Of a stretch of DNA of 64,000 nucleotides, positions 20,662-41,565 are shown piece by piece. Both the position numbers and the translations under genes were made by a program. Every line of letters starts with the position of its first letter. The first letter of the stretch is position 1. The notes beneath the pieces were generated by a model that was given only the letters and a program-made list of their open reading frames with translations, was not told the DNA's origin and ran no database searches. The DNA is from Actinomycetota bacterium (lineage in GTDB: Bacteria > Actinomycetota > Aquicultoria > CAJVYJ01 > JAUVQD01), in the NCBI GenBank assembly GCA_030679975.1, contig JAUXSL010000027.1, forward strand, positions 11,447-75,446, given 5' to 3'.

Positions 20662-21959
20662 TGAGTCTGTGGAAAGAAAACCCCGCATCCTTCATCCACA
20701 TTCGGCGCGGGAGGGTTAACGACTATAAAAGTTTCCATCTGCCGCCAGCAATAAGGTAGCTGGCCGGCGAGTTCTCTGTCCGAGACTGCCAGGCCGATAA
20801 AATATTCACCGCTGTTGAATTGATTTAGTACTGAAAAACAAAACTTACCTCTGCCCTTGCTTAATCTGGGCGGGATTACTTTACTAAAGTAGGTTCTATC
20901 CAGTCCGCATACCAGCCCATCGGTTCTGACGAAAGTCAAAGAGTACATTGGGTTTTCAACATCGAGCGAAGAATCGAACGTTACTTCGCCGTGAATCTCA
21001 TCTCCAACCGAGAATTCCCGGCTGGCACGGCCGTCCTTATCGCGTAACTTCACCGATAGGATAGTTATTTCACCCGTGCCCCTGTTTTCAAAGGTGTTTT
21101 TTGTGCGGTCTTGCCGGTTTTCGGTCGACGCTAAGCTTTTCTTAAGCATCAAGTTTTCATAGACGGAGAGGGCTTCGGTCACCTCGTCGGTGTAAGCCAT
21201 TGTCTTGCCTTTGTTTAAAACCAAGACACTGTCGCAAAACCCTTCAATGCTGTACATATTGTGACTGACGAGAATGAACGAGACGCCGTTCTTTCTCATA
21301 CGTTTCATTTTGTTAAAAGACTTGCGTTGAAAACCTATATCGCCGACGGTTAATATCTCGTCAACCAATAATATCTCCGGTTCTGAATGGATGGCTATCG
21401 CGAATCCCAGGCGTACGAACATCCCGGAGCTATAATTTTTGACCGGTGAATCAAGGAAGTCGCCGATATCGGCAAAGTCGACAATGTCTTTGAATTTGCC
21501 GTCGATTTCCTTTTTGCTCATTCCCAAGATGGCGCCGTTGATGTAGATATTTTCTCGTCCGGTCAGCATGGGATGGAAGCCGGCGCCGACCTCGATAAGC
21601 GCTCCTACCCGGCCTTTTATTTCAATCCGGCCTCTGTCGGGCATATATATGCCGTTGATCATCTTGAGCAGGGTGCTCTTACCTGAACCATTGGCGCCGA
21701 TAATGCCAAGCGCTTCGCCTTGTCTTAGGTTAAACGACACATCATCGACAGCCAAGAATTCACCGTCGCGCAGAATATTTGCCCGTGAGCCCAGGCCGAC
21801 CATGTTCCGGACAACTTCCGTTGTGCCGTAGAGCATTACGTGTTTTAGGTTGCGGGAGAATTTTTTTGCCACACCGTCAACGCGAATGATCTCAGTTGAA
21901 ATGCTTTTTTGGTCGCTCGCGAAGTCCTTTGCGGCGATCGGGGGTGCTTGAGCTTTCAT
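20646..21959 (-). CDS. wzt: Wzt-type ABC exporter ATPase with an extended C-terminal carbohydrate-binding-like domain
   Basis: Walker A (GANGSGKST), an ABC signature (SGMFVRLGFA) and Walker B (LLVDE). About 190 aa of beta-rich C-terminal extension is typical of Wzt_C. Confidence 0.85.
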   Translation of the reverse strand: MKAQAPPIAAKDFASDQKSISTEIIRVDGVAKKFSRNLKHVMLYGTTEVVRNMVGLGSRANILRDGEFLAVDDVSFNLRQGEALGIIGANGSGKSTLLKMINGIYMPDRGRIEIKGRVGALIEVGAGFHPMLTGRENIYINGAILGMSKKEIDGKFKDIVDFADIGDFLDSPVKNYSSGMFVRLGFAIAIHSEPEILLVDEILTVGDIGFQRKSFNKMKRMRKNGVSFILVSHNMYSIEGFCDSVLVLNKGKTMAYTDEVTEALSVYENLMLKKSLASTENRQDRTKNTFENRGTGEITILSVKLRDKDGRASREFSVGDEIHGEVTFDSSLDVENPMYSLTFVRTDGLVCGLDRTYFSKVIPPRLSKGRGKFCFSVLNQFNSGEYFIGLAVSDRELAGQLPYCWRQMETFIVVNPPAPNVDEGCGVFFPQTQWSFK

Positions 21960-22804
21960 ATCCTCTCAGCGATCTTGGTTTCAGCCATATGGAAGACGCG
22001 CCAAAAAAACAGAAACGAGGCAACGGCCAGCAAGGTCGACCAAAGCCATCCGGTTGTGTTTGAGAAAGTCCCGTATAATACAAGATCACGCGGGGCCATT
22101 ATTAGTTGCGCAAAAGGATTCCACGTGGTGATTTTTGCGATGATCCCTGTTTTTAAAGGCGGATAAAGGATGGGGATTAAAAACATCATAAAATTTGTGG
22201 CCAACGACACAACGTATGAGACGTCTCTTATCAGAACGGTAGCCAGGGCCAGAAAAAGACCTAGTCCGAGCGCCATGAGAAAAAGCGGCACCAAGACCAG
22301 CGGCAAGAAGATTATTTTCCATGAGGGAACTACACCAAATAAGATAAAGACAGCCAATGTTAGGCTTAGACGAACCAAAAACTCAACTATAGATTGTAGG
22401 GCAGCGGCTATAACCAGACTTACTTTGGGGAAATTAATCTTTCCAATCATAGCGCCGGCTGAGGCAACGCTTCCCGAGCAAGCCGAAACGCAAGATGCGA
22501 ACAAATTCCAAATAGTTAATCCGACAACAGCATAAACAACATAAGGTACGCCTGTGTCTCCTATTTTGAGAATACCGGCACTGCTAAGATAGACAAAAAC
22601 ACCGACGGTCGCCAGCGGATTGATGATTACCCAAATCAGTCCCAGGAAGGATTGTTTATAACGCGACGTAAACTCGCGCAGGAAGAGCCGCCAAATAAGT
22701 TCGCGACTCGATCCAAGATCGCCGATCATTTCCTGAAACTGGACGACGATGCTTATCTTTAGCGCTCGATCGGATTCGTATACAGTGGTCTTTTCTGTCG
22801 CCAT
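21956..22804 (-). CDS. wzm: Wzm-type ABC-2 exporter permease
   Basis: Six predicted transmembrane helices of the ABC-2 family. Start refined to the ATG at 22804 (MATEKTTVY), 1 nt downstream of the fcl stop. Confidence 0.8.
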   Translation of the reverse strand: MATEKTTVYESDRALKISIVVQFQEMIGDLGSSRELIWRLFLREFTSRYKQSFLGLIWVIINPLATVGVFVYLSSAGILKIGDTGVPYVVYAVVGLTIWNLFASCVSACSGSVASAGAMIGKINFPKVSLVIAAALQSIVEFLVRLSLTLAVFILFGVVPSWKIIFLPLVLVPLFLMALGLGLFLALATVLIRDVSYVVSLATNFMMFLIPILYPPLKTGIIAKITTWNPFAQLIMAPRDLVLYGTFSNTTGWLWSTLLAVASFLFFWRVFHMAETKIAERI

Positions 22805-22805
22805 C

Positions 22806-23789
22806 TTAATTTTCGACCTTGTCCGGGGGTAACGGTTTCGCTTGGTCGGAATACCATTGATACGTGCTTTTAAGTCCTTCACGCAAGCCGATAGCGGCCT
22901 GCCAGCCAAGGCTATTAAGCTTGGCGACATCGAGCAGCTTGCGGGGCATGCCGTCTGGTTTTGAGGCATCAAAGCTGATATCGCCGGTAAAAACGGCAAC
23001 CTCTTTTATCAACAGGGCCAGCTCTTTTATAGATATGTCCTGGCCAACACCGATATTAATGAGTTTGCCGCTATTGTAAGACCGCATGAGAAAAAGGCAA
23101 GCGTCGGCCAGATCATCAACATGCAGGAACTCGCGCCTGGGGTTGCCCGATCCCCAGACCTCGACAGACTTAGCGCCGGCGGCTTTAGCTTCGTGAAACT
23201 TGCGGATTAAAGCCGGTAAGACATGGGAGTTCTTGAGATCAAAGTTATCGTTTGGTCCATAGAGGTTTGTGGGCATGACCGAAATGAAGTTCGTCCCGTA
23301 CTGGTAATTGTAGCTTTGACACATCTTGATGCCGGCGATTTTTGCAAGCGCATAAGCGTCATTTGTCGGCTCCAAGGGCCCGGTTAAGAGATACTCTTCC
23401 TTGATCGGCTGGGGCGCTTTTTTCGGATAGATACAGGAACTGCCCAAAAAGAGCAATTTTTTGACGCCGGAAATGTAAGCATTATGGATTACGCTGGTCT
23501 CAATCAGCAAGTTGTCTCGAATAAATTCTGCCGGGCAGTGGCTGTTTGCCCAGATGCCGCCCACTTTAGCCGCAGCCATGAAAACATATTCCGGACGCTC
23601 CGCGGCAAAAAAAGCTTTAACGTCCGCGTTTTCGCGCAGATCAAGCTCATTGTGTGAGCGCGTGATCAAGTTGTGGAAACCTTCCGCCTCAAGTTTGCGG
23701 ACGAGAGCGGAGCCGGCTAGCCCTGAATGTCCGGCCACATATATCTTCGAGTCTCCGCTGAAGTGATCTTTCGGGCTCATAATGCTCAA
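22806..23789 (-). CDS. fcl: GDP-L-fucose synthase (GDP-4-keto-6-deoxymannose 3,5-epimerase/4-reductase)
   Basis: [26 protein letters not shown] and [15 protein letters not shown] motifs. Confidence 0.85.
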
Positions 23790-24868
23790 GACTCAAAGAC
23801 CAGTGGTTGATTCGGCAAAGCGGAGGCTTGCTTCTGAGCTTCCTGAAGATCGGCTTTGACCATCATTTTGACCAGCTCGGGAAAAGCGATCTTAGGGCTC
23901 CAGCCAAGCCGTTTCTTGGCTTTGGCGGCATCCCCTTGAAGAATTTCGACTTCTGTCGGTCTAAAATAGCGCGGGTCTATCTCGATTATCGCTTCTCCGG
24001 TCCGGCTATTCAGGCCTTTTTGGCTGACCCCGCTGCCTTGCCAGACTAGATTGATGCCAACTTCCCTAAAAGCCTCTTCGCAGAATTCCTTGACCGAATG
24101 GGTCTTGCCGGTAGCTATGATGTAATCGTCCGGGTTGTCTTGCTGTAGCATCAACCACATTGCTTCAACATAATCCGGGGCGTAACCCCAGTCCCTCCTG
24201 GCGTTTAGGTTGCCAAGAAACAATTTTTTCTGCAGGCCGAGTGTTATACGAGCGGCGCTCATTGTGATCTTGCGGGTGACAAAGGTTTCGCCTCTGAGGG
24301 GGGACTCATGGTTAAACAGTATCCCATTATTGGCGTGGATGCCGTAGGCCTCCCGGTAGTTGACCGTTATCCAGTAGCTGTACAGCTTGGCCACGCCATA
24401 AGGGCTTCTGGGGTAAAAAGGTGTTTTTTCAGTTTGCGGAATCTCTTCTGTTTTACCATAGAGTTCGCTGGTAGCCGCATTATAGAAACGGGTCTTGGCG
24501 CACATCCCCAATATGCGCAAAGCCTCCAGCAAGCGCAGAGTGCCCAGGCCGTCCGCATTGGCGGTATATTCAGGGGACTCAAAAGAAACTTGAACGTGGC
24601 TCTGGGCCGCCAGATGGTATATCTCATCCGGCCGAGTTTCTTGAATGAGCCGGATTATGTTAGTGGAGTCCGTCACGTCGCCATAATGTAACAAAAAGTT
24701 TGGGTGCCCATCATGGGGGTCTTTATATAAATGGTCGATTCGCTGAGTGTTAAACGAAGAAGATCGTCTTTTAATGCCGTGGACCAGGTAATCTTTATTT
24801 AACAAGAATTCAGCCAGATAAGCCCCGTCTTGTCCCGTTGCGCCGGTTATTAAAGCTGTTCTACGCAT
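23786..24868 (-). CDS. gmd: GDP-mannose 4,6-dehydratase
   Basis: [21 protein letters not shown] near the N-terminus, and SELYG and [11 protein letters not shown] motifs. Start refined to the ATG at 24868. Confidence 0.9.
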
Positions 24869-24963
24869 GTGCCTCTTTCCCCTAAATAGAGCGTGTACCA
24901 CTGTTCATCATACGAACAACGATAATCGTCAGATATGCCAGCGTCAAGGTTGTCGGGGCATCT

Positions 24964-25798: not shown

Positions 25799-27202
25799 TC
25801 AAGTGGATGCCGCGACCTGCGTAGTTAAGCTTGAGCCGGTCTGTGATCGACTGGCGGCCAACCCCAGCAGGAACCAGAGTGCTTTTTGTGGCATGGTGCT
25901 AAGAAAGAAGCCCGCGACCAAAAACCCGATAATGCCGATCATCAGCATCGAACAATCGACGGCCAGGTCTTGTTTTAACAGGCCGGCGTAAGCCCACCGC
26001 GCCCGACTCAATTCGAGGAGGCTTAAGCCGAGCAGCCCAACAAACGCCGCCAAGCCAATGATGCCGGTCTCGACGGCTGTTTCGATGTAAGTGTTATGCG
26101 CTACCATCGCCTTGACATTGCCCAGGTTAATCCACGGCATGTAGGAAGCGTATTTATAAAAGGCAAATTTGTAGTTTTGGATGCCCACTCCGAGCACTGG
26201 ATGATCGAGCCATATGCGCCAAGCGGTCTGCCAAATATCCAACCGACCCGACCCTCCGCTAACCAGGATCGAGCTTAGGGAAAACCGTGGATCCAAGAGT
26301 GCCAGGAAGACGCCGCTGAGGGTAACTACAAAAAACAAGATCCTCAGGCGCTTCTTGAGTAACGGTTCGACGAAGCCGTTCCGAGACAGAAAAAAGAACA
26401 TGACGACAACAGCGACCATGGCTCCGCGAGACAAGTTCGCCAATGTACCGATAAGCAGCAAGAAGAAGACTGTCCAGTACAACGATCTCTTATTTCCCTG
26501 GTTTCCGTTGACGAAAGCGAAAGCCAAGGGGATAAGGATCAGGATATTTAAAGCCGAGTAATTAGGGTCCATAGAGACACCGATGGCTCGGTTGGCGCCG
26601 CCGAGGATAAATTGGAAGACACCGATGAGCGCTGCCGGTATACCGGCTAAAGTTAAAATAAGCAGAGTGTTCTTAAACGTGGCTTCGTCATGAGTAAGAT
26701 CGACGACCATAAAGTAGAGGACAACCAGTTGTATCATAGTTATCAGTCTGTCCACGCCGACGGCCGGGTATTGCGCTTGGGTGATGGATAGAGCTGAAAC
26801 GGCGAGAAATAGCATTAAGACCAGGCCGGCCTTGTTTCGGGGGTTTATGAAAACCTGCCGGGTCCGCGCGAGTCTAATAAACCAGGAAAAAAAAGCGACG
26901 ACGCCGATAAGCTTGAATGAGGAAAAATCGCTGTTAAGCGAAGCGAGACTCTCAAACGGCAACCAGGCGGCGATCATGTAGAGCCCCAGCTTAGGGTTGG
27001 GAAGCACCAAAAAGGCCAATATCGGTAAGACTGAAACACCAAGACCGATTCTCGGATTAAAGGCTACTACGGCGCCGAGGCCTAGCCCAAAGACGGCCAC
27101 CACCAGCGTGATCAGCCAATTTCGATCGAGGAGCCGATTAAGTTGGCGAGAGGGTAGGGCCGCTTCCATGTTAAAGTGCGGCCCCTTGGCCGACAGTTTC
27201 AT
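25799..27202 (-). CDS. Wzy_C / O-antigen ligase family polytopic membrane protein
   Basis: About 12 transmembrane helices. A large periplasmic loop with HNTYIETAVETG matches the Wzy_C ligase/polymerase motif region. Confidence 0.75.
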   Translation of the reverse strand: MKLSAKGPHFNMEAALPSRQLNRLLDRNWLITLVVAVFGLGLGAVVAFNPRIGLGVSVLPILAFLVLPNPKLGLYMIAAWLPFESLASLNSDFSSFKLIGVVAFFSWFIRLARTRQVFINPRNKAGLVLMLFLAVSALSITQAQYPAVGVDRLITMIQLVVLYFMVVDLTHDEATFKNTLLILTLAGIPAALIGVFQFILGGANRAIGVSMDPNYSALNILILIPLAFAFVNGNQGNKRSLYWTVFFLLLIGTLANLSRGAMVAVVVMFFFLSRNGFVEPLLKKRLRILFFVVTLSGVFLALLDPRFSLSSILVSGGSGRLDIWQTAWRIWLDHPVLGVGIQNYKFAFYKYASYMPWINLGNVKAMVAHNTYIETAVETGIIGLAAFVGLLGLSLLELSRARWAYAGLLKQDLAVDCSMLMIGIIGFLVAGFFLSTMPQKALWFLLGLAASRSQTGSSLTTQVAAST

Positions 27203-28028
27203 AAGCGATAGCCAGGCCGCATCCGGCGATGAGCGCGGCTAAGGCGGCGAAGATCAAGTTCGCGGTGATGTTGGGCGATGCCGGCGTGGTTGGTCTAACC
27301 GCGGCGGTCAGGATCTTGGTGCGCGGCCCTTCTTCGAGATTGTTCATCAATGTCTGCTCTTGGGCCAATAGTGACTGCTCGCGATCGACCAAGAGCAGTT
27401 TTTGATCGATTAGCCGCGGCCGCTGCTCCTCTAATGCCGCCAGCCTTTGGTTTAGAGCAAAGACGATTATCGCTTTTTCCGAGGCCGGAATATCCTTGTT
27501 TTCAGCTTGCGCCAGCTCTTTTTTGGCCGCCCGTATCTCACCATCTATATGGGTGGTGTCCAGCAACGGTTGTTTGATCTTGGATTTGCCGGAGTTTTGC
27601 TTGTACAGGATCTCGTCAAGCCATTTAAGCGTTGCGCGCGTTATACGCAGTTGAGCGGCTGTTTTCTCGGCCTCGGGATCGACTGTCTTGGCATAGGCAA
27701 TAAATCTTTGTGCCGCTAGGTTGGCTATTTTATGTACAGAAGTTTTGTCGGGCGCGCTGACGGTTATGGCTATGATGTTGGACCCGGTGGCGTTTTCCGC
27801 GTGAACCATTTTCTTCAGTTCCAAAACGCTATATTTGAACTTGCCCTTATTAATGACTTCAGTCAGCAGGGTATCGCTAACGATTACCTCATTTAAGGCT
27901 GTCGGTGTATTAAAGACGCCGAGGGCGACCGGGCTGAGCATGACAGTCGAGGATGCCTCGTAAGTAATCTGCCGGATATTGATAAGTCCGGTGGTCATCA
28001 TAGTCACGACCATAAAAAAAGCAATCAA
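27171..28028 (-). CDS. Wzz-like polysaccharide co-polymerase (chain-length determinant)
   Basis: N-terminal transmembrane helix, a long coiled-coil periplasmic region and a C-terminal transmembrane helix (LIFAALAALIAGCGLAIAY). Confidence 0.6.
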   Translation of the reverse strand: MIAFFMVVTMMTTGLINIRQITYEASSTVMLSPVALGVFNTPTALNEVIVSDTLLTEVINKGKFKYSVLELKKMVHAENATGSNIIAITVSAPDKTSVHKIANLAAQRFIAYAKTVDPEAEKTAAQLRITRATLKWLDEILYKQNSGKSKIKQPLLDTTHIDGEIRAAKKELAQAENKDIPASEKAIIVFALNQRLAALEEQRPRLIDQKLLLVDREQSLLAQEQTLMNNLEEGPRTKILTAAVRPTTPASPNITANLIFAALAALIAGCGLAIAYETVGQGAAL

Positions 28029-28186: not shown

Positions 28187-29320
28187 CTATTTTACCGCTA
28201 TCGGCCGCTCTATGGCGACGGCCAGCGTCCTACATACATAGGTGACTTGCTTCTCACTCAATTGCGGGTACATCGGTAGGGATAAAACTTCTGTCGTTGC
28301 TAGTTCGCTTTGTGGATATGCTCCGGCGACCAGCCCTAAGTCAGCGTAGGCGGGTTGCAGATGGATGGGGAGCGGGTAATGAACGGCACTGTCGATGCCG
28401 CGATTCGCCAGTCTCTCCCTGATCGGGTCTCGCTCTTTGACGCGAATTGTATACTGGTGCCAGACATGTGTTCGGTTAGCGCCGGTTGCCGGTCGTTTGA
28501 CGCCCGGCAGTTCCGACAACAATGTATCATATAGGCCCGCACGCGAGCGCCGGGCCGCCGTCCAATTTTCGAGGCGCTTAAGTTTGGTTCTGACTACGGC
28601 GGCCTGCAGTTCGTCCAAGCGGCTGTTATATCCGATTTCTTCATGGTAATACTTCCGGCTGCTGCCGTGAGCTCTGAGCCGGCGGATTCGGCCGGCCGTT
28701 TCTTCGTCGTCGGTGACGATCATCCCACCGTCGCCGGCGCCGCCCAGATTTTTGCTGGGGAAGAAGCTTAGGCAGCCAATATTGCCGATCGATCCGACCC
28801 GTTTGTCCTTGTATTCGGCGCCGATAGCTTGGGCGCAATCTTCGACTACAGCGAGCTTGTATTTTCCGGCCAAGGTCATGATCTCAGCCATATCGGCCGG
28901 TTGTCCGTATAAGTGGACGGGCAAGATCGCGCGGGTGCGCGGGGTGATTTTAGCTTCGATCTGCCCGACATCCAAATTGTATGTCGCCGGATCGATATCG
29001 ACGAAGACAGGCACGGCGCCGCAATAAGATATAGCTTCGACGGTAGCGATAAAAGTAAACGGCGTAGTGATGACTTCGTCGCCGGGTCCAACACCTAAAG
29101 CACGCAAAGCCAGGTGCAGGGCGTCTGTTCCCGATGCGACCCCGACCGCGAAGCGGGCGCCGCAAAAGGCGGCGATCTCATCTTCCAGAGCGGCTACATT
29201 GGGGCCAAGGATAAACCTGCCGTCGGCCAGGGTTTGGTTAACGGCTGCCGTCAGTTCGTCTTTTATCTCTAAATACTGGGCCTTAAGATCAACGACGGGT
29301 ATCATCAATCGCTTAACCAC
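28187..29320 (-). CDS. DegT/DnrJ/EryC1-family PLP-dependent sugar aminotransferase (WbpE-like)
   Basis: N-terminal VDLKAQYLEIKDEL. A conserved lysine region (SFFPSKNLGGAGDGG). 377 aa. Confidence 0.85.
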   Translation of the reverse strand: MVKRLMIPVVDLKAQYLEIKDELTAAVNQTLADGRFILGPNVAALEDEIAAFCGARFAVGVASGTDALHLALRALGVGPGDEVITTPFTFIATVEAISYCGAVPVFVDIDPATYNLDVGQIEAKITPRTRAILPVHLYGQPADMAEIMTLAGKYKLAVVEDCAQAIGAEYKDKRVGSIGNIGCLSFFPSKNLGGAGDGGMIVTDDEETAGRIRRLRAHGSSRKYYHEEIGYNSRLDELQAAVVRTKLKRLENWTAARRSRAGLYDTLLSELPGVKRPATGANRTHVWHQYTIRVKERDPIRERLANRGIDSAVHYPLPIHLQPAYADLGLVAGAYPQSELATTEVLSLPMYPQLSEKQVTYVCRTLAVAIERPIAVK

Positions 29321-29797
29321 TCGTCCTGCGGCACATCGCGGATTATGCGGGCCGGGATACCCATGACCAGTTTGGCGTCCGGGACATCCTTAGTCACTAC
29401 CGAACCGGCAGCGACAAAAGCTTCGCGGCCGATAGTGATGCCCGGCAAAAGGAGCGAGGCGCCGCCGATGCGGGCGCCGCAAAAGGCGGCGATCTCATCT
29501 TCAAGAGCGGCTACATTGGGGCCAAGGATAAACCTTCCGTCGGCCAGAACTTGGTTAACGACTGCCGTCAGTTCGTCTTTTATTTCTAAATACTGGGCCT
29601 TAAGATCAACAACAGGTAGCATTAGCTGCTTAACCACTCGTCCTCCGGCACATCGCGGATTATACGGGCCGGGATACCCATGACCAGTTTGCCGTCGGGA
29701 ACATCCTTAGTTACTACCGAGCCGGCGGCGACAAAAGCTTCGCGACCGATAGTGATGCCCGGCAAAAGGAGCGAGGCGCCGCCGATGCGGGCGCCGC
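29153..29797. repeat. Tandem duplication of two 317-bp units, about 95% identical, bounded by 11-bp GCGGGCGCCGC microhomologies
   Basis: The GCGGGCGCCGC motif occurs at 29153-29163, 29470-29480 and 29787-29797. Each unit is the degT 5' end, the intergenic spacer, and the acetyltransferase 3' end. Confidence 0.85.
29305..29637 (-). pseudogene. Chimeric in-frame ORF created by the duplication: DegT N-terminus fused to acetyltransferase C-terminus
   Basis: Residues 1-56 are near-identical to the DegT N-terminus (MVKQLMLPVVDLKAQYLEIKDELTA...FCGAR). Residues 57-110 are near-identical to the acetyltransferase C-terminus (IGGASLLLPGITIGREAFVAAGSVV...). The junction is GAR, encoded by the microhomology. 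Confidence 0.5.
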
Positions 29798-30368
29798 GTT
29801 TAACGTGGGCGCCCTTGATCTTATTAAAACGATTGACGCCGCGTCCCATGGCATTGTCGTTAGTGGTTGTCACCATGGGCGCGATAAAGACGCGTTCCTC
29901 TAAGACAACATAAGCGGTGATGTAGGCGCCCGTCTGAATCTTAGTATATGAGCCGACTGAAACGTCGTTTTCAATAGTGACCCGACAGCCGATCATCACA
30001 AAATCGCTGATGTGACATCGCTCGCGCACAACGGCCAGATCGCCGATTAAGGTTGAGGTTCCGATGGTCGATCCGGCAAAAACGATGGCGCCGGAGCCGA
30101 TGATGCAATTGTCGCCGACAATTAGGGAAAGCGGATCGGCGCTGATTTTTACGGTACTTGTCGGTCCGGGGCGGGATTTTCTGCCTATAACTGCGTTATC
30201 GCCGATCACGACATTTTTTCCAATCGTGGTGCCGGCATGCACGACAACATTATTGCCGATTGTCACACCGGCGCCAATCCTGGCGTCCTCTGCCACGGCC
30301 GCATTTTTTCCAAGGATGATATCAGTCAACCACAATCTCCTTGAGATCGATAGGTCGGCCGTTTTCAT
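29622..30368 (-). CDS. Hexapeptide-repeat sugar N-acetyltransferase (WbpD/PglD-like)
   Basis: Left-handed beta-helix repeats (IGAGVTIGNNVVVHAGTTIGKNVVIGDNAVIG). The C-terminal LLLPGITIGREAFVAAGSVV is typical of UDP-amino-sugar acetyltransferases. Confidence 0.8.
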   Translation of the reverse strand: MKTADLSISRRLWLTDIILGKNAAVAEDARIGAGVTIGNNVVVHAGTTIGKNVVIGDNAVIGRKSRPGPTSTVKISADPLSLIVGDNCIIGSGAIVFAGSTIGTSTLIGDLAVVRERCHISDFVMIGCRVTIENDVSVGSYTKIQTGAYITAYVVLEERVFIAPMVTTTNDNAMGRGVNRFNKIKGAHVKRGARIGGASLLLPGITIGREAFVAAGSVVTKDVPDGKLVMGIPARIIRDVPEDEWLSS

Positions 30369-31404
30369 TGAGTGAGGCCTGGGCCGCTTGCAGAATTCTC
30401 AGTACATCGAGGCCATTTTGTCCGTCGGTAAGCGGACGACGACCGGTCCGGACGCAATCCAGAAAATGGTTGCATTCTAAGGCTAATGGTTCTTGCATTT
30501 TAATGCTGGGTATTAATATGTCGCCAAAGCGTAAGGTCAGGTCATCACCATATTTTTTATAGCCGGCCGACAAATCAGCCCCTTTGTCATAAAGGCGGAC
30601 TTTTTCCGAGCTTTCCATATCGTCGAAGACGACCATCTTCTTGCTGCCGACAACAGTGAATTTTCGGGTTTTGTGCGGGTCCAGCCAGCTGACATGTGAG
30701 TGGGTCGCGATTCCGCCTTCAAAAACGATGGTGACAAAGACAACATCTTGCACGCCCGGCCTCAGGCAGCACTGCCCAACAGCTGCGACGCTGAGCGGCT
30801 GTTTGCCGATTAAGTGGAGGGCGACGGCGACATCATGGGGCGCCAGGCTCCAGAGGGCGTTCTCGTCTTTTCGCACGGTGCCCAGGTTCAGGCGTTGAGA
30901 GTATAGATAGTAGACATCGCCTATATCTTGTTTGTCGATCAAAGACTTAATTAGTGTAATAGCCGGGTGGTACATCAGCAGGTGACCGACCATGAGTATC
31001 CGGTCGAAGCGGTCGGCGAGGTCTATCAGAGTCTGCGCCTCGCGAATATCCAGCGTAATCGGTTTTTCCACAAAGACATGCTTTCCGGCTTTGAGCGCCG
31101 CCTCGGCGTGCTTAAAGTGCATCGGCGCGGGCGAGGCTACGACCACGGCGTCGATCTCATCATCAAGAAATACTTCCGATATGTCGGCGGTAGTCCTTGT
31201 TTCCGGATACCGACTTGCCAGGGCTTCCAATCGAGCTATGGCCAGGTCGCAGACTGTCGTTAAATTGGATTCGGGTAGCTCGGCGAACTTGCGCACCAGG
31301 TTTTGGCCCCACCGGCCGGCGCCGATTACAGCTACATTGACAGGCTTGATTGGCTTCTTGTCGACCGGAGTCAGTTGCGCCGGCGGATCTTTTGTCATAT
31401 CCAC
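30322..31404 (-). CDS. Gfo/Idh/MocA-family NAD-dependent oxidoreductase (WbpB-like)
   Basis: N-terminal VAVIGAGRWGQNLVRKF Rossmann fold, and an EKPI motif. Confidence 0.8.
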   Translation of the reverse strand: MDMTKDPPAQLTPVDKKPIKPVNVAVIGAGRWGQNLVRKFAELPESNLTTVCDLAIARLEALASRYPETRTTADISEVFLDDEIDAVVVASPAPMHFKHAEAALKAGKHVFVEKPITLDIREAQTLIDLADRFDRILMVGHLLMYHPAITLIKSLIDKQDIGDVYYLYSQRLNLGTVRKDENALWSLAPHDVAVALHLIGKQPLSVAAVGQCCLRPGVQDVVFVTIVFEGGIATHSHVSWLDPHKTRKFTVVGSKKMVVFDDMESSEKVRLYDKGADLSAGYKKYGDDLTLRFGDILIPSIKMQEPLALECNHFLDCVRTGRRPLTDGQNGLDVLRILQAAQASLNENGRPIDLKEIVVD

Positions 31405-31407
31405 ATT

Positions 31408-32760
31408 CTACAACCCCACAATGTTCGGTCCGGCGAAAGCGGCGAAAGCGTTTCGGGTATCTATAATTAATTTGGAGCGTTTTGCCAGCTCTTCATAAGG
31501 ATAAGCGCTGTGGTCGGCGCAGAGTACGATGCAATCGAAGGACTCAATTGCTAAACTTTCCAGTATTTGTGAAGCGTAGCTGTCCGAGCCTAACGTCACG
31601 GATGGGATAAACGGGTCGCTGTAGATTACCTTCGCTTGAGCTCCAATCAAGAGCTCCATGATCTCTAGGCCGGGGGACATGCGGGCGTCGTCTATATCTT
31701 TCTTATACGCTACCCCCAAAATCAGGATTTTTGCCCCTCGCAGGCATTTACCGGCCTGATTTAGCGCTTTGTTGATCTTTTCCATAACAAACAAGGGCAT
31801 CTGCAGATTGACCTCGCCCGCCAATTCTATGAATCGGGTATGGAAGTCATACTGCCTGGCCTTCCAGGTCAGATAGAAAGGGTCGACCGGTATGCAATGT
31901 CCGCCGACCCCCGGCCCGGGGTAGAAGCTCATCATACCAAAAGGCTTGGTTGCCGCCGCGTCGACGACTTCCCAAACACTAATGCCCATCTTATCGCAGA
32001 GCAGTGCGAGTTCATTGACGAGGGCTATATTGACCGCTCGAAATGTGTTTTCAAAGACCTTGGTCATCTCCGCGACTTTTGGCGAGCTGACGGGCACGAT
32101 GGTCATGATCGTCTGCGAGTAAAGAGCGGTCGCGGTCTTTAGGCAGTTCTCGGTTACGCCTCCGACGACCTTGGAAATATTTTTTGTGGTAAACCGTTTA
32201 TTGCCCGGATCGACTCTTTCCGGTGAAAAAGCCAGGAAATAATCGACGCCGATTTCAAGGCCGCTCGCGGCCAGGATGGGCAAAACCACTTCTTCGGTCG
32301 TCCCGGGGAAGGTTGTGCTTTCCAAGACCACCATTTGTCCGGGGCGCAGGTATTGAGCGATCTCCTTGGTGGTTGAGATGATGTAGGAGATATCGGGGTC
32401 GCGGGCCGCGTCAAGCGGCGTCGGCACGCAGATTATGATGACATCGGCCTTGGCCAGCACCGAGTAATCATCGGTCGCCCTGATCTTCCCTGTCGCCACG
32501 AGCTCGGCCAGCTCTTTATCTTCGACGTCGGAAATATAATTTTGGCCGGCGTTTATCATCTCCATCCGCTCGACCTTTTGCTCGATGCCGATGACCGTAA
32601 AGCCGACTTTAGCTTTCTCCACCGCCAAGGGCAGGCCGACATAGCCCATACCGATGACGACGATGACGGCTGTTCGGGCGCTTATCTTTTCTTCAAGCGC
32701 CAGAATAGGTGGTGACGGCGCTTCTCTTAAAGCCAATTTCTCCTCGATGGGTCGATACAA
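31408..32760 (-). CDS. UDP-N-acetyl-D-glucosamine/mannosamine 6-dehydrogenase (WbpA/WecC-like)
   Basis: N-terminal VIGMGYVGLPLAV. Catalytic region GGHCIPVDP. 450 aa. Confidence 0.85.
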   Translation of the reverse strand: MYRPIEEKLALREAPSPPILALEEKISARTAVIVVIGMGYVGLPLAVEKAKVGFTVIGIEQKVERMEMINAGQNYISDVEDKELAELVATGKIRATDDYSVLAKADVIIICVPTPLDAARDPDISYIISTTKEIAQYLRPGQMVVLESTTFPGTTEEVVLPILAASGLEIGVDYFLAFSPERVDPGNKRFTTKNISKVVGGVTENCLKTATALYSQTIMTIVPVSSPKVAEMTKVFENTFRAVNIALVNELALLCDKMGISVWEVVDAAATKPFGMMSFYPGPGVGGHCIPVDPFYLTWKARQYDFHTRFIELAGEVNLQMPLFVMEKINKALNQAGKCLRGAKILILGVAYKKDIDDARMSPGLEIMELLIGAQAKVIYSDPFIPSVTLGSDSYASQILESLAIESFDCIVLCADHSAYPYEELAKRSKLIIDTRNAFAAFAGPNIVGL

Positions 32761-35786: not shown

Positions 35787-38700
35787 GTGAGTAAAGCTTT
35801 ACAACGCTATAAAATCAGATTTTGGCCTCTTTTGATAACGCTGGTCTACCTTCTTATGGCCGGCGGCGCATCCGGCAAAGCCGGTGTCAATAAAGCTATC
35901 AGTGTGCCCGCGGAGACAGCCATTGTCTCGGTTAGCCACAATCGCCGCGCGGACAGCATCGGGGCTTTCGGTCTGACATCCGGCGAACTTAGTGGCATTG
36001 AGCTGGTATTGCGCCGGCCGGATGGTTGGTTTTGGGACCCGATTACTCTTGACTGGAAGCCGGAGGCGACCTGGCAAAAGAGCTCGTTGATACCAATGAG
36101 CCCGACGACTTTCGCTTGGGACGAGATTTTAGCCGCGCCTCCCTGCGACGGAGCCAGCCTTCTCCTATTAGCCAGGGCCGTAAGCCGCCAAGGTCAGCCG
36201 GACCCGAAGCCGGCGGGCGCGCGTATCTATATCGATAACATCAAGCCGGTCGTCACCAAGTTCGACGTCGAGGGCGCGCGTTGGTCGAATAGCCGCGAAG
36301 CGACGCTAAGCCTTGAAGCTTCCGGCGCTACCACGATACAATTAGCCGAATCCCGTCAAGGTCTAAGCGCCGCCAAGAATATCCGCTACCGCGACAAAAT
36401 CAAATTCCAGTTCTCCGAAGGAGACGGGCTAAAGACGCTTTACGGAGCGTTTTTAGATAGCGTCGGGAATCGGGTAGTGGTTCCCTTAAACGGCGGACCG
36501 ATCGGTTTGGATACGGCGTCGCCGGCCGTCAACCGGTTGGCGCCGCCCGCCGAGGCCCGATCTGTCAGTGTCGGCGCCAAGATCAGCGCCGGGTTTATCG
36601 ACGACAGCGATATCGATCCCTCCACCCTAAAGAGCGAATTTGGTCCCGACGCGACTTTTTATCTCACGCAAGGTAGTCGCTGGACGACCGCGACGGTCGC
36701 TTACGACCCCAAAAAAAAGACAGCGGTGCTCACACCGGCTGAGCCCTTGGTAAAAGGTCAAGTATACACAGCCCACCTAAAGCCGGGCATTAAAGATATT
36801 GCCGGCAATGAATTTGACGACGACATCTCATGGAGCTTTCAGGCTGTTGAGCCCAGCCCGCCGGAAACAAAGATTGACGGCTTGCCGGAAGTGATGTCGG
36901 GGAAGACCAAGGTCTTGATCGAAGGAAGCGCTCATGATCCGGACGGGGTCGGGGCGGTTTCGGTGTTTGTCCGTGACGGCGACGGCCATTATTGGGATTC
37001 AATTTCAGCTACCTGGACGGCGGAACCGTTTGCGAATGACGCTATGCTTGCCCGCAAGGGGCAAAAAGAGACCGGCTGGGAGTGGCGTTGGCCTTTGCCG
37101 AGCAGTGACGGAGCCCGTTTTGTCGTGACGGCGGCGGCAAAAGATCGCTTTCTGGCGGAAGACCCCACACCGGCCGGCACTTCTCTGTTGGTGGACAACC
37201 AGCCGCCGCAAGTCGAGCGTTTGATCTTACAGAACGATCTGCCGGTTACCGCTTCAGATACGATCACTATAACCAGTCTGGTTAAAGGGGCGACGCAAAT
37301 GAGATTCGCGGCCGACTCTGCCGCTCTTAAATTTCAACGGTGGCAGTCGTTTAGCGCTGAAACCAGTTTTACTTTGCCGAAAAAGGAAGGCCGAAAAGAA
37401 GTATTCGGGCAGTGGCGGGACGCGCTCGGCAATTATTCCCGAGTAGGGGAGGCTGGGAGCAAAGGTAGGATCATCTTAGATAAAAGCGGCCCTAAGGTTG
37501 CATCGACCTATCCCCACGATCAGGTTGAAAACGTAAATATCTCAGTGATGGTTACGGCCAATTTCGAAGAGATCAGCCTGGATGAAACCGGGATAACCAC
37601 CGATACATTCAAGCTAATCGGTCCCGACAAAAATCCGGTTCCGGCCGCGGTCACATTCGATCAGCTGTCAAAGACGGCTACGCTCACGCCCATTGAGTTC
37701 TTGCGATACGGGACCGGCTATAGAGTGATATTAAGCGGCGCCATCAAAGATCGGCTTGGTAACACCATCGGTCATGATTATGGCTGGACATTCAAGACGG
37801 TCGGGCTGTCGACGCATCCGCCGGCTCGTCCTCAAGGTTTGACGGTGGCGGCGGCGGAGCAAGGCGACAAGGTGTCGTGGTCGCCTCCTTTGGGAATCGA
37901 CAAGGGCAACGACTTCGACCCGCCCGTCCAGGGCGGCTACAACATTTATCGCGCCTCGTCTCCTGACGGACCGTTTGAGCTGGTAAACAAACTCCCCGTA
38001 ACGGCTTTGACTTACTACGACAAAGACTACGAACGGCCGGGCCGAAGGTTTTACATGGTCAAAGCGGTCGATGCCGGAGGCAGTGAAAGTGAAGGTTCGC
38101 CGGTCTCCGCCAATGATGATATAAACACGTTGATTAAAATCGCCCCCGGTAAGCCGGCCACCGTGACGCTCTCAAATGACGCCCTGAGACTGGAAGTGCC
38201 GAAGATCGAGCGACCGATGACGCTGCGCATCAAGACCAGGGAGGCGTTAGGCGCGCCGGCTACGCCGATGCGTCTCTTTCAGCTGGATTCAAGCCCGACC
38301 GTCAACCTTAAGACCTTGTCTTTAGTCTTGCCCGGAGACCCTATGGGGGCGACGATAATGCGGAGGGAAGAAGGCGGGTGGCAGCCACTGGCGGACGTGA
38401 CTTATTCGCGCGATCCGTTGACTCACATCGTCACAGTCGGGCCGGTCTCGTCAAGCGGACAATACTTAGTCGTCAATCGCGCGGACTTGACTCCGCCGCC
38501 GTCGGCCCCGGAAGTACATCTGTCAACGAGAGAGGGAAAGCCGCTTGTCGGTTGGTCCAAGATCAACGATCCGGACAGCGGCATCAGGGCCTACCGGCTG
38601 TGGCGCACGGAAACAACCATGACTTTCGAAACTTCGACGACCGCGGCCGCCGTCAATCTGCCGCCCGGCATGAACAGGTTCTTGGATAACAGCGCGGAGC

Positions 38701-40394
38701 CCGGCCACACCTATTACTATTGGGTCGCCGGTGTAAACGGCGCCGATTTGCCGAGTCCCATCGGGGGAGCGGATCCGACCGTCACGGCGCGCCCGATGGT
38801 GGAGCATCGGCCGCGTGTCGCCGGCGTCGTTAATTGTCAGTCATGTCATATTGAAAGACGGGTCCAAAGTGATATGGGGTTGATCGACTGCCGCCGCTGT
38901 CATGACGGGACCGGCAGCCTTGTCATCATTACCGGCTACGATAGCGGAAGTTCGCTCTGCCGGTCATGCCATGCGCTCAGCCGGGGACAGCTCAACCGGG
39001 CGGGCGGCTCGCAGATCGGGCGGTGCGGCGGTTGCCATACCAAGGGAGATTCACCGATCCTGGTTAGCGATAATGGTCACACCGGCCGCTCGGGACTGGA
39101 CTCAATGGTTTGCTCCAGCTGCCACAGCCTCCACCGACCGGGGGACAGTAAAAGCGGGTATTTGGTCGACCCGGCTAATACAAGGCGGTCTTGGTCGGGC
39201 TCTAAAAGCGATTTTTGCCTTGTCTGTCATCGCGCGACCGGCTGGCCGGAAGCGACCGAGACTTTGGAGAGGTTTGTGGCAAGGGACGTCATTTTTTCCA
39301 GCATGGAGAGCGCCCGGTTGTTTCCGGGGTGGTCAAAAACCGGTTGGAAACAGTCGGCGCATCAAAGAGTAGCCGGGTGTTTGACCTGCCATGAGCCGCA
39401 CAAGTCCCCGAACGCGCGGTTGGTCGCTTTTCGCGCCAAAGGGGGCAAGTATATCTACTTTTCGGAGTTTAGCGCTTCCGAAGCTCTTTGCTATGAATGC
39501 CACCGCCCCGGCGGCCCGAAGGGCGCGGTCGATTTATTGACGTTGTCGCGGTTGCCTTCGACCCATAGCGCCGGCACCTTCAGTGTCCACAGCGATGCTG
39601 AAACGGCGTCGCAGCTGGGCATATTAAACAGGCATGTAAATTGCAACGATTGTCATAATGTCCACGAATCGCAGAGGGAGAAGCGGGAACTCTTTTCCAA
39701 CAGGGTTTCCGGCGCTTTAAGGGGAGTACCCGGCGTTGAGCCGCTAAACGGCGGAGCGGGCTTGCCGCCGAGTTATACGGAGGTCTACGCCGCGGGGCGC
39801 GAGTACCAGATCTGCTTCAAGTGCCATTCTTCATATGTGAAGATGCCGCCGGCCGGCATGACCGATTACGCGATCAAGTTTAATCCGGCCAATTCTTCAT
39901 ACCATCCGGTGGAAACGAGGGGCAAAAACCGCGGGATAAAATCGGTGGCCTTTGTTAATGGTTGGAACCAGAAAGCGACAATGTATTGTTCCGATTGTCA
40001 CGCCAATCGGAAGGAGCCGGGTGTGGCCCGCGGGCCGCACGGGTCCAAGTTTAACCCTATGCTGGCCGGTGAGTTTGGCCCGCTTGCCGACGCCGGGCGC
40101 CAAGACGAGCTCTGCTACCAATGCCACAACCAAAAGACCTATAAGGAAGGTCGAGAAGGTAGCCGCTGGCAAGGTCCGGGCGGGCATGCCGACCACATAA
40201 GCAAGGACAAAATCGGGTGTTTTAAATGCCACGAAACCCATGGCAGCAGTTTTACCGACCATCTGATAAAGATTATGCAACCTCTTGAAGCTTCGGGGAC
40301 CACAGCTTTTTCACACGATTCGACCGGCGGCGGTTGCATAGCTACCTGTCACACGCGGCCGAATGACAGCTATCAATATAAACACGCGTATTAG
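35787..40394 (+). CDS. Large secreted multidomain protein: signal peptide, Ig-like (SbsA_Ig/Big-like) and FN3-like modules, and a C-terminal multihaem c-type cytochrome domain
   Basis: Hydrophobic N-terminus (PLLITLVYLLMAGGASG). Two SbsA_Ig-like modules, each ending in a ...AGNEF/...LGNTIGHDYGW pattern. Two FN3-like modules (YNIYRAS..., YRLWRTE...). Over the last 520 aa (nt about 38830-40394) there are 13 CxxCH motifs, many as CxxCHxxH, plus one CxxxCH. Confidence 0.8.
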   Translation: MSKALQRYKIRFWPLLITLVYLLMAGGASGKAGVNKAISVPAETAIVSVSHNRRADSIGAFGLTSGELSGIELVLRRPDGWFWDPITLDWKPEATWQKSSLIPMSPTTFAWDEILAAPPCDGASLLLLARAVSRQGQPDPKPAGARIYIDNIKPVVTKFDVEGARWSNSREATLSLEASGATTIQLAESRQGLSAAKNIRYRDKIKFQFSEGDGLKTLYGAFLDSVGNRVVVPLNGGPIGLDTASPAVNRLAPPAEARSVSVGAKISAGFIDDSDIDPSTLKSEFGPDATFYLTQGSRWTTATVAYDPKKKTAVLTPAEPLVKGQVYTAHLKPGIKDIAGNEFDDDISWSFQAVEPSPPETKIDGLPEVMSGKTKVLIEGSAHDPDGVGAVSVFVRDGDGHYWDSISATWTAEPFANDAMLARKGQKETGWEWRWPLPSSDGARFVVTAAAKDRFLAEDPTPAGTSLLVDNQPPQVERLILQNDLPVTASDTITITSLVKGATQMRFAADSAALKFQRWQSFSAETSFTLPKKEGRKEVFGQWRDALGNYSRVGEAGSKGRIILDKSGPKVASTYPHDQVENVNISVMVTANFEEISLDETGITTDTFKLIGPDKNPVPAAVTFDQLSKTATLTPIEFLRYGTGYRVILSGAIKDRLGNTIGHDYGWTFKTVGLSTHPPARPQGLTVAAAEQGDKVSWSPPLGIDKGNDFDPPVQGGYNIYRASSPDGPFELVNKLPVTALTYYDKDYERPGRRFYMVKAVDAGGSESEGSPVSANDDINTLIKIAPGKPATVTLSNDALRLEVPKIERPMTLRIKTREALGAPATPMRLFQLDSSPTVNLKTLSLVLPGDPMGATIMRREEGGWQPLADVTYSRDPLTHIVTVGPVSSSGQYLVVNRADLTPPPSAPEVHLSTREGKPLVGWSKINDPDSGIRAYRLWRTETTMTFETSTTAAAVNLPPGMNRFLDNSAEPGHTYYYWVAGVNGADLPSPIGGADPTVTARPMVEHRPRVAGVVNCQSCHIERRVQSDMGLIDCRRCHDGTGSLVIITGYDSGSSLCRSCHALSRGQLNRAGGSQIGRCGGCHTKGDSPILVSDNGHTGRSGLDSMVCSSCHSLHRPGDSKSGYLVDPANTRRSWSGSKSDFCLVCHRATGWPEATETLERFVARDVIFSSMESARLFPGWSKTGWKQSAHQRVAGCLTCHEPHKSPNARLVAFRAKGGKYIYFSEFSASEALCYECHRPGGPKGAVDLLTLSRLPSTHSAGTFSVHSDAETASQLGILNRHVNCNDCHNVHESQREKRELFSNRVSGALRGVPGVEPLNGGAGLPPSYTEVYAAGREYQICFKCHSSYVKMPPAGMTDYAIKFNPANSSYHPVETRGKNRGIKSVAFVNGWNQKATMYCSDCHANRKEPGVARGPHGSKFNPMLAGEFGPLADAGRQDELCYQCHNQKTYKEGREGSRWQGPGGHADHISKDKIGCFKCHETHGSSFTDHLIKIMQPLEASGTTAFSHDSTGGGCIATCHTRPNDSYQYKHAY

Positions 40395-40479
40395 GAGGGA
40401 AGTAAGGCGTCGATTATAATCTGGATACAGTCGGCCGGCGGTTGCCTTGCGAGCACTGTCACGAGATTAAGGGTTGTTA

Positions 40480-41565
40480 ATGTCGGATTGGGTCAGGAAA
40501 TCGCTTGAACAAATTGAGGCGTACCGCGCGGGCAGACGGGCCTCGGAGGTAAAAGGGGAGCTCGGCTTAAGCGACATAATTAAGTTGTCTTCCAATGAAT
40601 CGCCGTTTGCGCCGGTCAGACAGGCATCCAGGGCGATGGGTCAGGCCCTAAAGGGTCTCAACCGGTATCCGGACGGGGATTGCCGACTTCTCAAGAGCAA
40701 ACTGGCCGCCAATCTAGACGTGGCTTATGAAACATTGATGGTCGGCAACGGCTCTAACGAGCTCATTCGTTTGCTGGCGCAAGTCATTCTGGAGCCGGGC
40801 GATGAGGTCATAATGGCGGCCCCGTCTTTTGTCGTTTACCCGATCGTCACCGCCATCATGAGCGCGATGGCGGTAGAGGTGCCGCTCAAGGGGTTGGCGC
40901 ACGATTTGGACGCTATGGCCGCGGCGATCACGCCCAAGACCAAGCTGATATTTGTCTGCAACCCCAACAATCCGACCGGGACGGTCGTCCCCGCCGCCGA
41001 CTGCGGCGCTTTCTTGGAATCGGTCCCCGGGCATGTGCTGGTCTGCTTCGACGAAGCCTACCACGAGTTTGTCTCCGACTTCACTTATGGGACAGCTCTT
41101 GAGCTGCGCGGCAAGCATGAAAATATCATTGTGTTGCGAACATTTTCAAAGATTTACGGCCTGGCGGGCGCGCGCGTCGGATACGGGATGGCGCCGCCGG
41201 CGGTAGTGGAGGCGATAGACAAGGTTCGCGAACCGTTCAACGTCAACCTTCTCGGCCAGATCGGCGCTTATTACAGCCTTGACGGGCAACCGGAAATCCG
41301 CCGGCGGGCCGCTGTCAATCGGACGCAGCGGGAGCTGGTTGAATCGGCCCTGGACCGGCTTGGCTTGGAGCGAGCGGCGTCGCAGGCAAATTTTGTCTAT
41401 TTCGATCCGCGTATGCCGGCGGCTGAGGCGTTTGACAGGCTGGCGCGGCACGGCGTCATCGTCCGCGCGTTCAGGCACGGAGACCACATCCGGGCGACGC
41501 TCGGCAGCCCCAAGGATAACCTGGTGCTGATAAACGCTCTGGGGACGTTAAAGACGCCCCCGTAA
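40480..41565 (+). CDS. hisC: Histidinol-phosphate/aromatic aminotransferase (class II PLP aminotransferase)
   Basis: Conserved segments SSNESPFAP, KIYGLAGARVGY and NPNNPTG. The ATG at 40480 is preferred over the TTG at 40474, given an upstream AAGGG. Confidence 0.85.
   Translation: MSDWVRKSLEQIEAYRAGRRASEVKGELGLSDIIKLSSNESPFAPVRQASRAMGQALKGLNRYPDGDCRLLKSKLAANLDVAYETLMVGNGSNELIRLLAQVILEPGDEVIMAAPSFVVYPIVTAIMSAMAVEVPLKGLAHDLDAMAAAITPKTKLIFVCNPNNPTGTVVPAADCGAFLESVPGHVLVCFDEAYHEFVSDFTYGTALELRGKHENIIVLRTFSKIYGLAGARVGYGMAPPAVVEAIDKVREPFNVNLLGQIGAYYSLDGQPEIRRRAAVNRTQRELVESALDRLGLERAASQANFVYFDPRMPAAEAFDRLARHGVIVRAFRHGDHIRATLGSPKDNLVLINALGTLKTPP

Follow-up and report, generated by a model that had tools for sequence, protein, structure and literature searches.

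A rare acidic sugar, 2,3-diacetamido-2,3-dideoxy-mannuronic acid (ManNAc3NAcA), occurs in O-antigens, secondary cell-wall polymers and archaeal N-glycans. Its textbook synthesis proceeds in five steps. The pathway is already known in both bacteria and archaea. Among its described forms are the Wbp/Wlb pathways of Pseudomonas aeruginosa, Bordetella and Thermus thermophilus HB27, in which the oxidoreductases WbpB and WlbA recycle a tightly bound cofactor with 2-oxoglutarate. A Wbp-like pathway for the archaellin glycan of Methanococcus maripaludis (MMP0350-0353 and MMP0357) reportedly relies on a Gfo/Idh/MocA 3-dehydrogenase from a lineage apart from WbpB. C3 of a UDP-linked N-acetylhexosamine (UDP-HexNAc) is also oxidised by GnnA, which works with GnnB alone in the synthesis of lipid A diaminoglucose (GlcN3N), with no 6-dehydrogenase, acetyltransferase or epimerase involved. 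Here we compare with these systems a glycan locus from an uncultured bacterium labelled Actinomycetota, contained in a stretch of 64,000 nucleotides of contig JAUXSL010000027.1 (hereafter the window). We consider it likely that this locus makes UDP-ManNAc3NAcA from UDP-N-acetylglucosamine (UDP-GlcNAc) for a cell-surface glycan.

Judged from its genes, the locus would follow the same five chemical steps as the Wbp/Wlb pathway. C6 of UDP-GlcNAc would be oxidised by a WbpA orthologue, and C3 would then be oxidised by a Gfo/Idh/MocA enzyme whose lineage is separate from those of WbpB and WlbA. A WbpE-like aminotransferase would aminate C3, a long QdtC-like hexapeptide transferase would N-acetylate the resulting 3-amino group, and an epimerase of the WbpI/WlbD type, encoded 25 kb away beside a conserved glycosyltransferase family 4 (GT4) gene, would invert C2. 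Finally, an AsnB-like amidotransferase may convert the carboxylate into an amide. The first, third and fifth steps are supported by homology to characterised enzymes, and we infer the second and fourth from position in a conserved gene cassette and from fold.

The core genes follow the order dehydrogenase, 3-dehydrogenase, acetyltransferase, aminotransferase, as in wbpA-B-(C)-D-E and wlbA-B-C, and the counterparts of WbpA, WbpE and WbpI are clear homologues (50%, 48% and 63.5% identical, the last to the Thermus enzyme). A preliminary description of this DNA had read these genes as a complete Wbp set. The open reading frames (ORFs) it named are present on the minus strand where it had placed them, and profile searches with Pfam and NCBIfam uphold the families to which it had assigned them. 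The dehydrogenase, aminotransferase and epimerase also match their characterised counterparts, but its ‘WbpB’ is an orthologue of neither WbpB nor WlbA, and its ‘WbpD’ is not of the WlbB/WbpD type. Profile searches alone cannot settle orthology here: NCBIfam has no model specific to WbpA, WbpB or WbpD, and a genuine WbpB matches no NCBIfam family.

The dehydrogenase groups with WbpA and not with WecC or with the UDP-glucose dehydrogenases, the grouping that the preliminary description had named as evidence that would speak against WbpA. Our WbpA reference was P0241, a P. aeruginosa cluster representative that is 99% identical to the WbpA sequence used to find it and whose contig reads himD-wzz-wbpA-wbpB-wbpC. 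The window enzyme is 50% identical to this protein over 423 amino acids (446 bits), compared with 35% identity and 210 bits for E. coli WecC; WbpA and WecC are themselves 32% identical. Because the pathway enzymes of T. thermophilus are 49-60% identical to those of P. aeruginosa (PMC10622841, Table 1), 50% identity to WbpA falls in the range expected of an orthologue. The window enzyme and genuine WbpA also share one NCBIfam pattern, in which the generic model passes and the models for WecC, TviB and archaeal UDP-ManNAc dehydrogenase remain below their cut-offs. WbpA structures are absent from the Protein Data Bank (PDB), and a PDB sequence search gives dehydrogenases of UDP-ManNAc and UDP-GalNAc, and not those of UDP-glucose, as the best solved relatives. 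Taken together, these comparisons argue for a WbpA-type UDP-GlcNAc 6-dehydrogenase. Its start codon is probably at 32736, eight residues later than in the longest ORF, which gives 442 amino acids, as in the database protein P0001. Exact-match searches with the longest ORF translations of this gene and of the window's UPF0182 gene had no result.

The aminotransferase scores 354 bits against the structures of P. aeruginosa WbpE, with 47.9% identity, and keeps the Schiff-base lysine motif SFFPSK. WbpE, DesV and QdtB, which are among its top PDB matches, are C3 aminotransferases. It groups with WbpE and further C3 aminotransferases, and we predict that it is a WbpE-type enzyme dependent on pyridoxal phosphate (PLP), probably translated from the ATG at 29305.

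The epimerase is 63.5% identical (490 bits) to the T. thermophilus 2-epimerase that acts on UDP-2,3-diacetamido-2,3-dideoxy-glucuronic acid (UDP-GlcNAc3NAcA; PDB 8sxv and related entries). It scores 320 bits against an archaeal UDP-GlcNAc 2-epimerase and 175 bits against E. coli WecB. Use of UDP-GlcNAc3NAcA has been demonstrated for the Thermus enzyme, which was crystallised with substrate and product (PMC10622841). The residues that hold the sugar, Gln14, Lys17, Asp98, Glu120 and Trp307, are all kept in the window protein, as is Arg12. WecB has Glu and Arg in place of Gln14 and Trp307, whereas the window protein, like cassette-linked epimerases from other phyla, shows the state typical of the diacetamido-uronic acid (diNAcA) enzymes at both positions. 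These features identify the protein as a putative UDP-GlcNAc3NAcA 2-epimerase of the WbpI/WlbD type. In relatives, the epimerase orthologue directly follows the aminotransferase or adjoins a GT4 gene. Homologues of the window GT4 that are 48-61% identical adjoin the epimerase in four loci (L004, L075, L081 and L082) and follow Wzy_C in a fifth (L083), and the window GT4 is a candidate ManNAc3NAcA transferase.

The enzymes predicted for steps 2 and 4 differ from those of the Wbp/Wlb pathway. The oxidoreductase aligns with P. aeruginosa WbpB over only 76 amino acids (28% identity, E 1e-5) and shares 25% identity with a WlbA homologue of the Bordetella type. Neither WbpB nor WlbA is found among its PDB sequence matches at E<1e-10 or among its top 50 fold matches. 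Taken strictly, this is, for this one enzyme, the outcome that the preliminary description had named as speaking against its reading, a grouping with non-orthologous paralogues. By these comparisons it is neither of the WbpB type of P. aeruginosa and Thermus nor of the WlbA type of Bordetella and Chromobacterium, and it belongs to a third lineage.

The best PDB sequence matches of the oxidoreductase are 3c1a (97 bits) and GnnA (7bvj, 85 bits). Its AlphaFold (AF2) model has a predicted local distance difference test score (pLDDT) of 88 and superposes best on GnnA, the closest solved structure, with a template modelling score (TM-score, normalised by target length) of 0.89-0.92 and a root-mean-square deviation of about 2 Å, although the two proteins are only 24-25% identical. 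An important caveat to this comparison is that Foldseek finds many Gfo/Idh/MocA enzymes near-equal by E-value and does not discriminate substrates. The best curated model is NF040723, for archaeal UDP-GlcNAc 3-dehydrogenase, with 176 bits where the cut-off is 450. Because a WlbA-type enzyme scores about the same on this model (165 bits), the match is not discriminating and points to no specific relationship with the M. maripaludis pathway. Homologues about 55% identical to the window oxidoreductase occur in other phyla next to acetyltransferase, aminotransferase, epimerase, dehydrogenase and AsnB-like genes, where they are annotated merely as ‘predicted dehydrogenase’. An NCBI protein identical to the window oxidoreductase comes from a metagenome-assembled genome that bears the label ‘Actinomycetota bacterium’.

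The acetyltransferase is a QdtC-like protein of about 248 amino acids, compared with about 190 for the WlbB/WbpD form. Its PDB matches are QdtC (92 bits), a WxcM-like protein (75 bits) and WlbB (74 bits), all of them 3-amino-sugar N-acetyltransferases. The gene in the same slot of Bacillota cassettes is 48-58% identical to it.

The cassette itself was surveyed in species-representative genomes. We fetched 80 loci with a dehydrogenase 56-63% identical to that of the window, 54 of which extend at least 4.5 kb downstream. A Gfo/Idh/MocA gene directly follows the dehydrogenase in 44 of these 54, and is of the window type in 23 and of the WlbA type in 21. The window-type enzymes are 31-47% identical to the window's own and come mainly from Vulcanimicrobiota/Eremiobacterota and Sericytochromatia. 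The WlbA-type enzymes are mainly from Bacillota, and the one that was checked scores 278 bits against the B. pertussis/C. violaceum WlbA structures (3q2k). A hexapeptide acetyltransferase is present in 43 of the 54 loci. Fifteen of these are long, again 48-58% identical to the window protein, and 28 are short; one short protein was checked and is of the WlbB type (194 bits to 3mqg). The window acetyltransferase is thus not of the form seen in most related cassettes, but it occupies the same slot. Aminotransferase genes were found in 45 of the 54 loci and all four core genes in 40, and an epimerase lies within 10 kb, often straight after the aminotransferase, in 26 of the 44 loci that have 10 kb downstream.

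Because each of these two slots in a conserved cassette is occupied by one or the other of two lineages, we assign the window oxidoreductase as a probable 3-dehydrogenase and the acetyltransferase as a probable 3-N-acetyltransferase. This is the main reason for both assignments, to which the GnnA-like fold of the oxidoreductase and the fold of the acetyltransferase also contribute. The cassette is widespread in uncultured lineages, where different lineages fill the 3-dehydrogenase and acetyltransferase slots interchangeably. The window-type oxidoreductase occurs across Vulcanimicrobiota/Eremiobacterota, Sericytochromatia and some Bacillota, in addition to the source bacterium. Among the sampled loci, the window's own oxidoreductase type combined with the long acetyltransferase was seen only in the close relatives L081 and L082.

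The survey also turned up three Bacillota loci (L012, L022 and L033) in which acetyltransferase and aminotransferase form one ORF of about 630-645 amino acids directly after the dehydrogenase, which may be a natural gene fusion. In two of them (L022 and L033), an ORF resembling the oxidoreductase, with 20-22% identity to that of the window, lies downstream instead.

Several observations weigh against the assignment of the whole pathway to this locus. The epimerase gene is remote from the other four. An initiating transferase was not found in the window by a search for WecA-like sequence and profile scans of ORFs, which gave no Bac_transf or Glycos_transf_4 match, in agreement with the preliminary description. 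No enzyme shown to oxidise the UDP-GlcNAc uronate (UDP-GlcNAcA) is an orthologue of the oxidoreductase, whose nearest characterised relatives, GnnA and MMP0352, act on UDP-GlcNAc. WlbB is only a distant relative of the acetyltransferase. Finally, a tandem duplication at the junction of the acetyltransferase and aminotransferase genes could disturb their translational coupling.

This duplication had been missed before, and the four core genes had been called contiguous. In fact, a 110-codon ORF created by the duplication separates the acetyltransferase from the aminotransferase. The duplication breakpoint lies at an 11-nt microhomology, GCGGCGCCCGC, and the novel junction joins TTTTGCGGCGCCCGC directly to ATCGGCGGC. 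Both genes flanking the duplication remain intact. In NCBIfam the chimeric ORF matches nothing but acetyltransferase C-termini, and it is probably non-functional. The two copies differ at 24 of 317 positions, with 14 synonymous and 7 non-synonymous codon changes.

Either the duplication is real and older, and was collapsed by short-read assembly elsewhere, or the source assembly strung together two strain alleles. In the latter case the duplication would be an artefact joining two haplotypes, and the acetyltransferase gene would directly overlap the aminotransferase gene in the real genome. An artefact is favoured by an independent Logan assembly, L084, from practically the same strain: it carries one copy only, which matches copy 1 exactly, and over about 13 kb beyond the repeat it shows just 5 mismatches. 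The changes in the extra copy, mostly synonymous as expected for an allele that evolved in working genes, point the same way. L081 and L082, in which the DNA of the cassette is about 84% identical, also have one copy, and so does the more distant L083. However, the tandem arrangement requires a novel junction that fuses aminotransferase codon 56 to the acetyltransferase C-terminus, and the 11 nt shared there do not suffice for an assembler to make this join unless reads support it. Moreover, as the first 52 nt of the copies are identical, a real diverged repeat could have been collapsed in a short-read de Bruijn assembly, and neither copy is closer than the other to the outgroup L081. On balance we regard an assembly artefact as a possibility to be taken seriously, albeit a somewhat doubtful one.

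An alternative scheme for the pathway retains the product and changes the order of the steps. The oxidoreductase would act first, on UDP-GlcNAc, and would release NADH where WbpB and WlbA recycle a bound cofactor with 2-oxoglutarate; amination and acetylation would lead to UDP-GlcNAc3NAc, C6 oxidation by the WbpA-like dehydrogenase would follow, and the epimerase would act last. Such an order would suit an enzyme whose closest solved fold is that of GnnA, a UDP-GlcNAc 3-dehydrogenase, which among curated models best matches that for archaeal UDP-GlcNAc 3-dehydrogenase, and for which orthology to WbpB or WlbA is not detectable. As noted above, however, a WlbA-type enzyme matches the archaeal model about equally well. 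Moreover, the dehydrogenase-first gene order is the same as in WlbA-type cassettes, and the window dehydrogenase is half identical to WbpA, which takes UDP-GlcNAc. We consider this order unlikely.

The preferred scheme has C6 oxidation ahead of C3 oxidation, as in P. aeruginosa, but a GnnA-like enzyme might allow the reverse, and the oxidoreductase may or may not need 2-oxoglutarate to recycle its cofactor. We tentatively propose that the nucleotide-sugar 3-dehydrogenases for diNAc-uronic acid include a third bacterial lineage, that of the window-type oxidoreductase, which replaced the WlbA type in place and may act like GnnA, on UDP-GlcNAc with free NAD+ and without 2-oxoglutarate. If true, this would change the pathway order and its cofactor logic. 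Recognition of this lineage would improve the annotation of glycan loci.

That the genes instead serve two unrelated sugars, with the epimerase and dehydrogenase forming a WecB/WecC pair for UDP-N-acetylmannosaminuronic acid (UDP-ManNAcA) and the other three genes making UDP-GlcNAc3NAc, is highly improbable and we reject it: the epimerase does pass the generic wecB model TIGR00236 and lies apart from the other four genes, and the dehydrogenase does have sub-threshold matches to UDP-ManNAc dehydrogenase models and UDP-ManNAc dehydrogenases as its best PDB matches, but the PDB offers no WbpA for comparison, the dehydrogenase is far nearer to WbpA than to WecC in bit score, the epimerase is likewise far nearer to the diNAcA epimerase than to WecB and carries the diNAcA-specific pocket residues, and all five genes are contiguous in many relatives.

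The carboxylate of the predicted sugar may be modified further. WbpS, WbqG and Porphyromonas gingivalis PGN_1234 fall within the eps_aminotran_1 family, and deletion of PGN_1234 abolishes uronamide formation (PMC7468200). Like these proteins, the window enzyme is a two-domain AsnB-like protein encoded beside Wbp-type genes. The eps_aminotran_1 model TIGR03108 is essentially tied as its best model, with 442 bits compared with 450 for TIGR01536 and 259 for the housekeeping AsnB model, but this score is under the TIGR03108 cut-off of 817. The N-terminal MCGI is intact, with the Cys2 nucleophile present, and AsnB homologues stand beside similar cassettes in four loci (L046, L060, L085 and L087). 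The resemblance to the WbpS family, suggested earlier, therefore stands in part, and amidation of the uronate by this enzyme is plausible.

Overlaying the window on its close relatives provides a view of how the locus is built. In L081 and L082, whose dehydrogenase is 86% identical to the window's, a gene for a Wzy_C protein with tetratricopeptide repeats (TPR) precedes dehydrogenase, oxidoreductase, acetyltransferase and aminotransferase; after the aminotransferase come Wzz-like, Wzy_C, Wzx, one unknown gene, GT4 and the epimerase. In L083, Wzy_C is followed by GT4 directly. The window has about 20 kb between Wzy_C and the GT4/epimerase pair, without Wzx, and this block contains Wzm/Wzt, Gmd/Fcl, a UDP-galactopyranose mutase (UGM), a methyltransferase, a short-chain dehydrogenase/reductase (SDR) enzyme and the AsnB-like gene, together with most of the glycosyltransferase genes. 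We suggest that the locus is probably a conserved diNAcA core joined to a variable block that sits where close relatives have a Wzx flippase.

The preliminary description had expected a single, unusually elaborate glycan. This is not established, as the close relatives carry the diNAcA core only and the extra genes of the 20-kb block are found here; a composite locus need not specify one exceptionally elaborate glycan. Its count of about twelve glycosyltransferases also falls, to 10 genes with 11 glycosyltransferase domains. What the locus does predict is an acidic, possibly amidated, surface glycan for this organism.

Within the variable block, Gmd and Fcl were recognised again as the predicted GDP-L-fucose synthesis pair, with Fcl marginally under the cut-off of its model, and the glycan would be exported by the Wzm/Wzt ABC transporter. 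The enzyme described earlier as UGM-like is upheld as such, with its active site largely kept, and is of the eukaryotic type. At E<=1e-5, a Pfam search of its ORF did not return the bacterial GLF domain, and the ‘hypothetical protein’ models of bacterial PRK07208 fit it far less well (188 bits) than the eukaryotic enzymes do. On the residue list of the Aspergillus fumigatus enzyme, it keeps His63, Phe66, Arg91, Tyr104, Gln107, Arg182, Asn207, Trp315, Tyr317, Arg327, Tyr419, Arg447, Tyr453 and Asn457, and Gln458 is replaced by Met. ‘Amino_oxidase’ genes beside the oxidoreductase homologues of L085 and L087 were considered as members of the same family and dropped, as tblastn shows no similarity.

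Taken together, these observations refine known biology and overturn nothing. The new elements are modest: a 3-dehydrogenase lineage and a long acetyltransferase that substitute in place, a diverged tandem duplication, and a eukaryote-type UGM in a bacterium. The coordinates of all features are collected in the table.

Table. Features of the glycan locus, with positions in the window
Feature	Position	Strand	Basis and remarks
Run of minus-strand genes	left edge to 32760	minus	ORF list
UDP-GlcNAc3NAcA 2-epimerase, putative, WbpI/WlbD type	1825-2922	minus	Pfam Epimerase_2; TIGR00236 342 bits
GT4 glycosyltransferase	2919-4046	minus	Pfam; conserved partner of the epimerase
AsnB-like glutamine amidotransferase, WbpS-like uronate amidase candidate	4040-6004	minus	Pfam GATase and Asn_synthase
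UDP-galactopyranose mutase, eukaryote-type	19267-20688	minus	403 bits to Trypanosoma cruzi UGM, 378 bits to A. fumigatus UGM
Wzt with C-terminal carbohydrate-binding domain	20646-21959	minus	ATPase PF00005 and PF14524
Wzm	21956-22999	minus	ABC-2 permease PF01061
Fcl	22806-23789	minus	NF047922 494.7 bits, cut-off 500
Gmd	23786-24901	minus	TIGR01472 588 bits, cut-off 415
Wzy_C-domain membrane protein (polymerase or ligase)	25799-27202	minus	PF04932; position conserved in L081-L083
Wzz-like protein, two transmembrane segments (one at each end)	27171-28028	minus	weak TIGR01006 match, 45 bits; position after the aminotransferase conserved in L081-L083
Nucleotide-sugar C3 aminotransferase, PLP-dependent, WbpE-like	28187-29320	minus	Pfam DegT_DnrJ_EryC1 446 bits
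Tandem duplication, 2 x 317 bp, 92.4% identical	29149-29465 and 29466-29782		spans the acetyltransferase stop and aminotransferase start
Chimeric ORF, 110 codons (105 from ATG)	29305-29637	minus	aminotransferase N-terminus (56 aa) and acetyltransferase C-terminus (55 aa)
N-acetyltransferase, left-handed beta-helix, long QdtC-like form	29622-30368	minus	Pfam Hexapep; alternative start near 30329
Gfo/Idh/MocA oxidoreductase, probable nucleotide-sugar 3-dehydrogenase	30322-31404	minus	Pfam GFO_IDH_MocA N- and C-terminal domains
UDP-HexNAc 6-dehydrogenase, WbpA-like	31408-32760	minus	all three Pfam domains of the UDP-glucose/GDP-mannose dehydrogenase family; TIGR03026 429 bits

At the left edge of the window, a minus-strand ORF for a B12-binding radical SAM protein with a CPYRCTFC motif (1-730) lies directly downstream of a GT2 gene. 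Because this ORF runs off the edge, the glycan locus continues beyond it. Two plus-strand ORFs (7553-9530) break the minus-strand run; they encode proteins of 404 amino acids with about nine predicted transmembrane segments and of 266 amino acids with terminal transmembrane segments, neither with a Pfam or NCBIfam match at E<=1e-5. An Rfam search of the window returned no RNA families.

The genes flanking the glycan locus are housekeeping genes, for aromatic amino-acid synthesis and cmk, ispH, der, plsY and gpsA. On one side, 40474-48679 carries a hisC-like aminotransferase, prephenate dehydrogenase, EPSP synthase and cmk. Aromatic amino-acid genes and cmk also adjoin wzz-wbpA-wbpB in P. aeruginosa (L090, 1-9194), and the shared neighbourhood is probably a coincidence. 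A 1535-residue multihaem cytochrome with Big_5 Ig-like and MtrC/MtrF-like domains is encoded on the plus strand at 35787-40394, adjoining genes for TPR and Wzy_C-TPR proteins, and NapC/NirT-type cytochromes stand beside the glycan locus in L081 and L083.

Farther to the right, a 41-nt direct repeat (54372-55412), 95% identical between copies that lie exactly 1000 bp apart, begins just past the gpsA stop codon. The repeats bracket a small gene pair that resembles a toxin-antitoxin system (54549-54803 and 54805-55074), and a second small pair (56366-56919) resembles a BrnT/BrnA toxin-antitoxin pair. This whole region has a low G+C content, 0.46-0.51.

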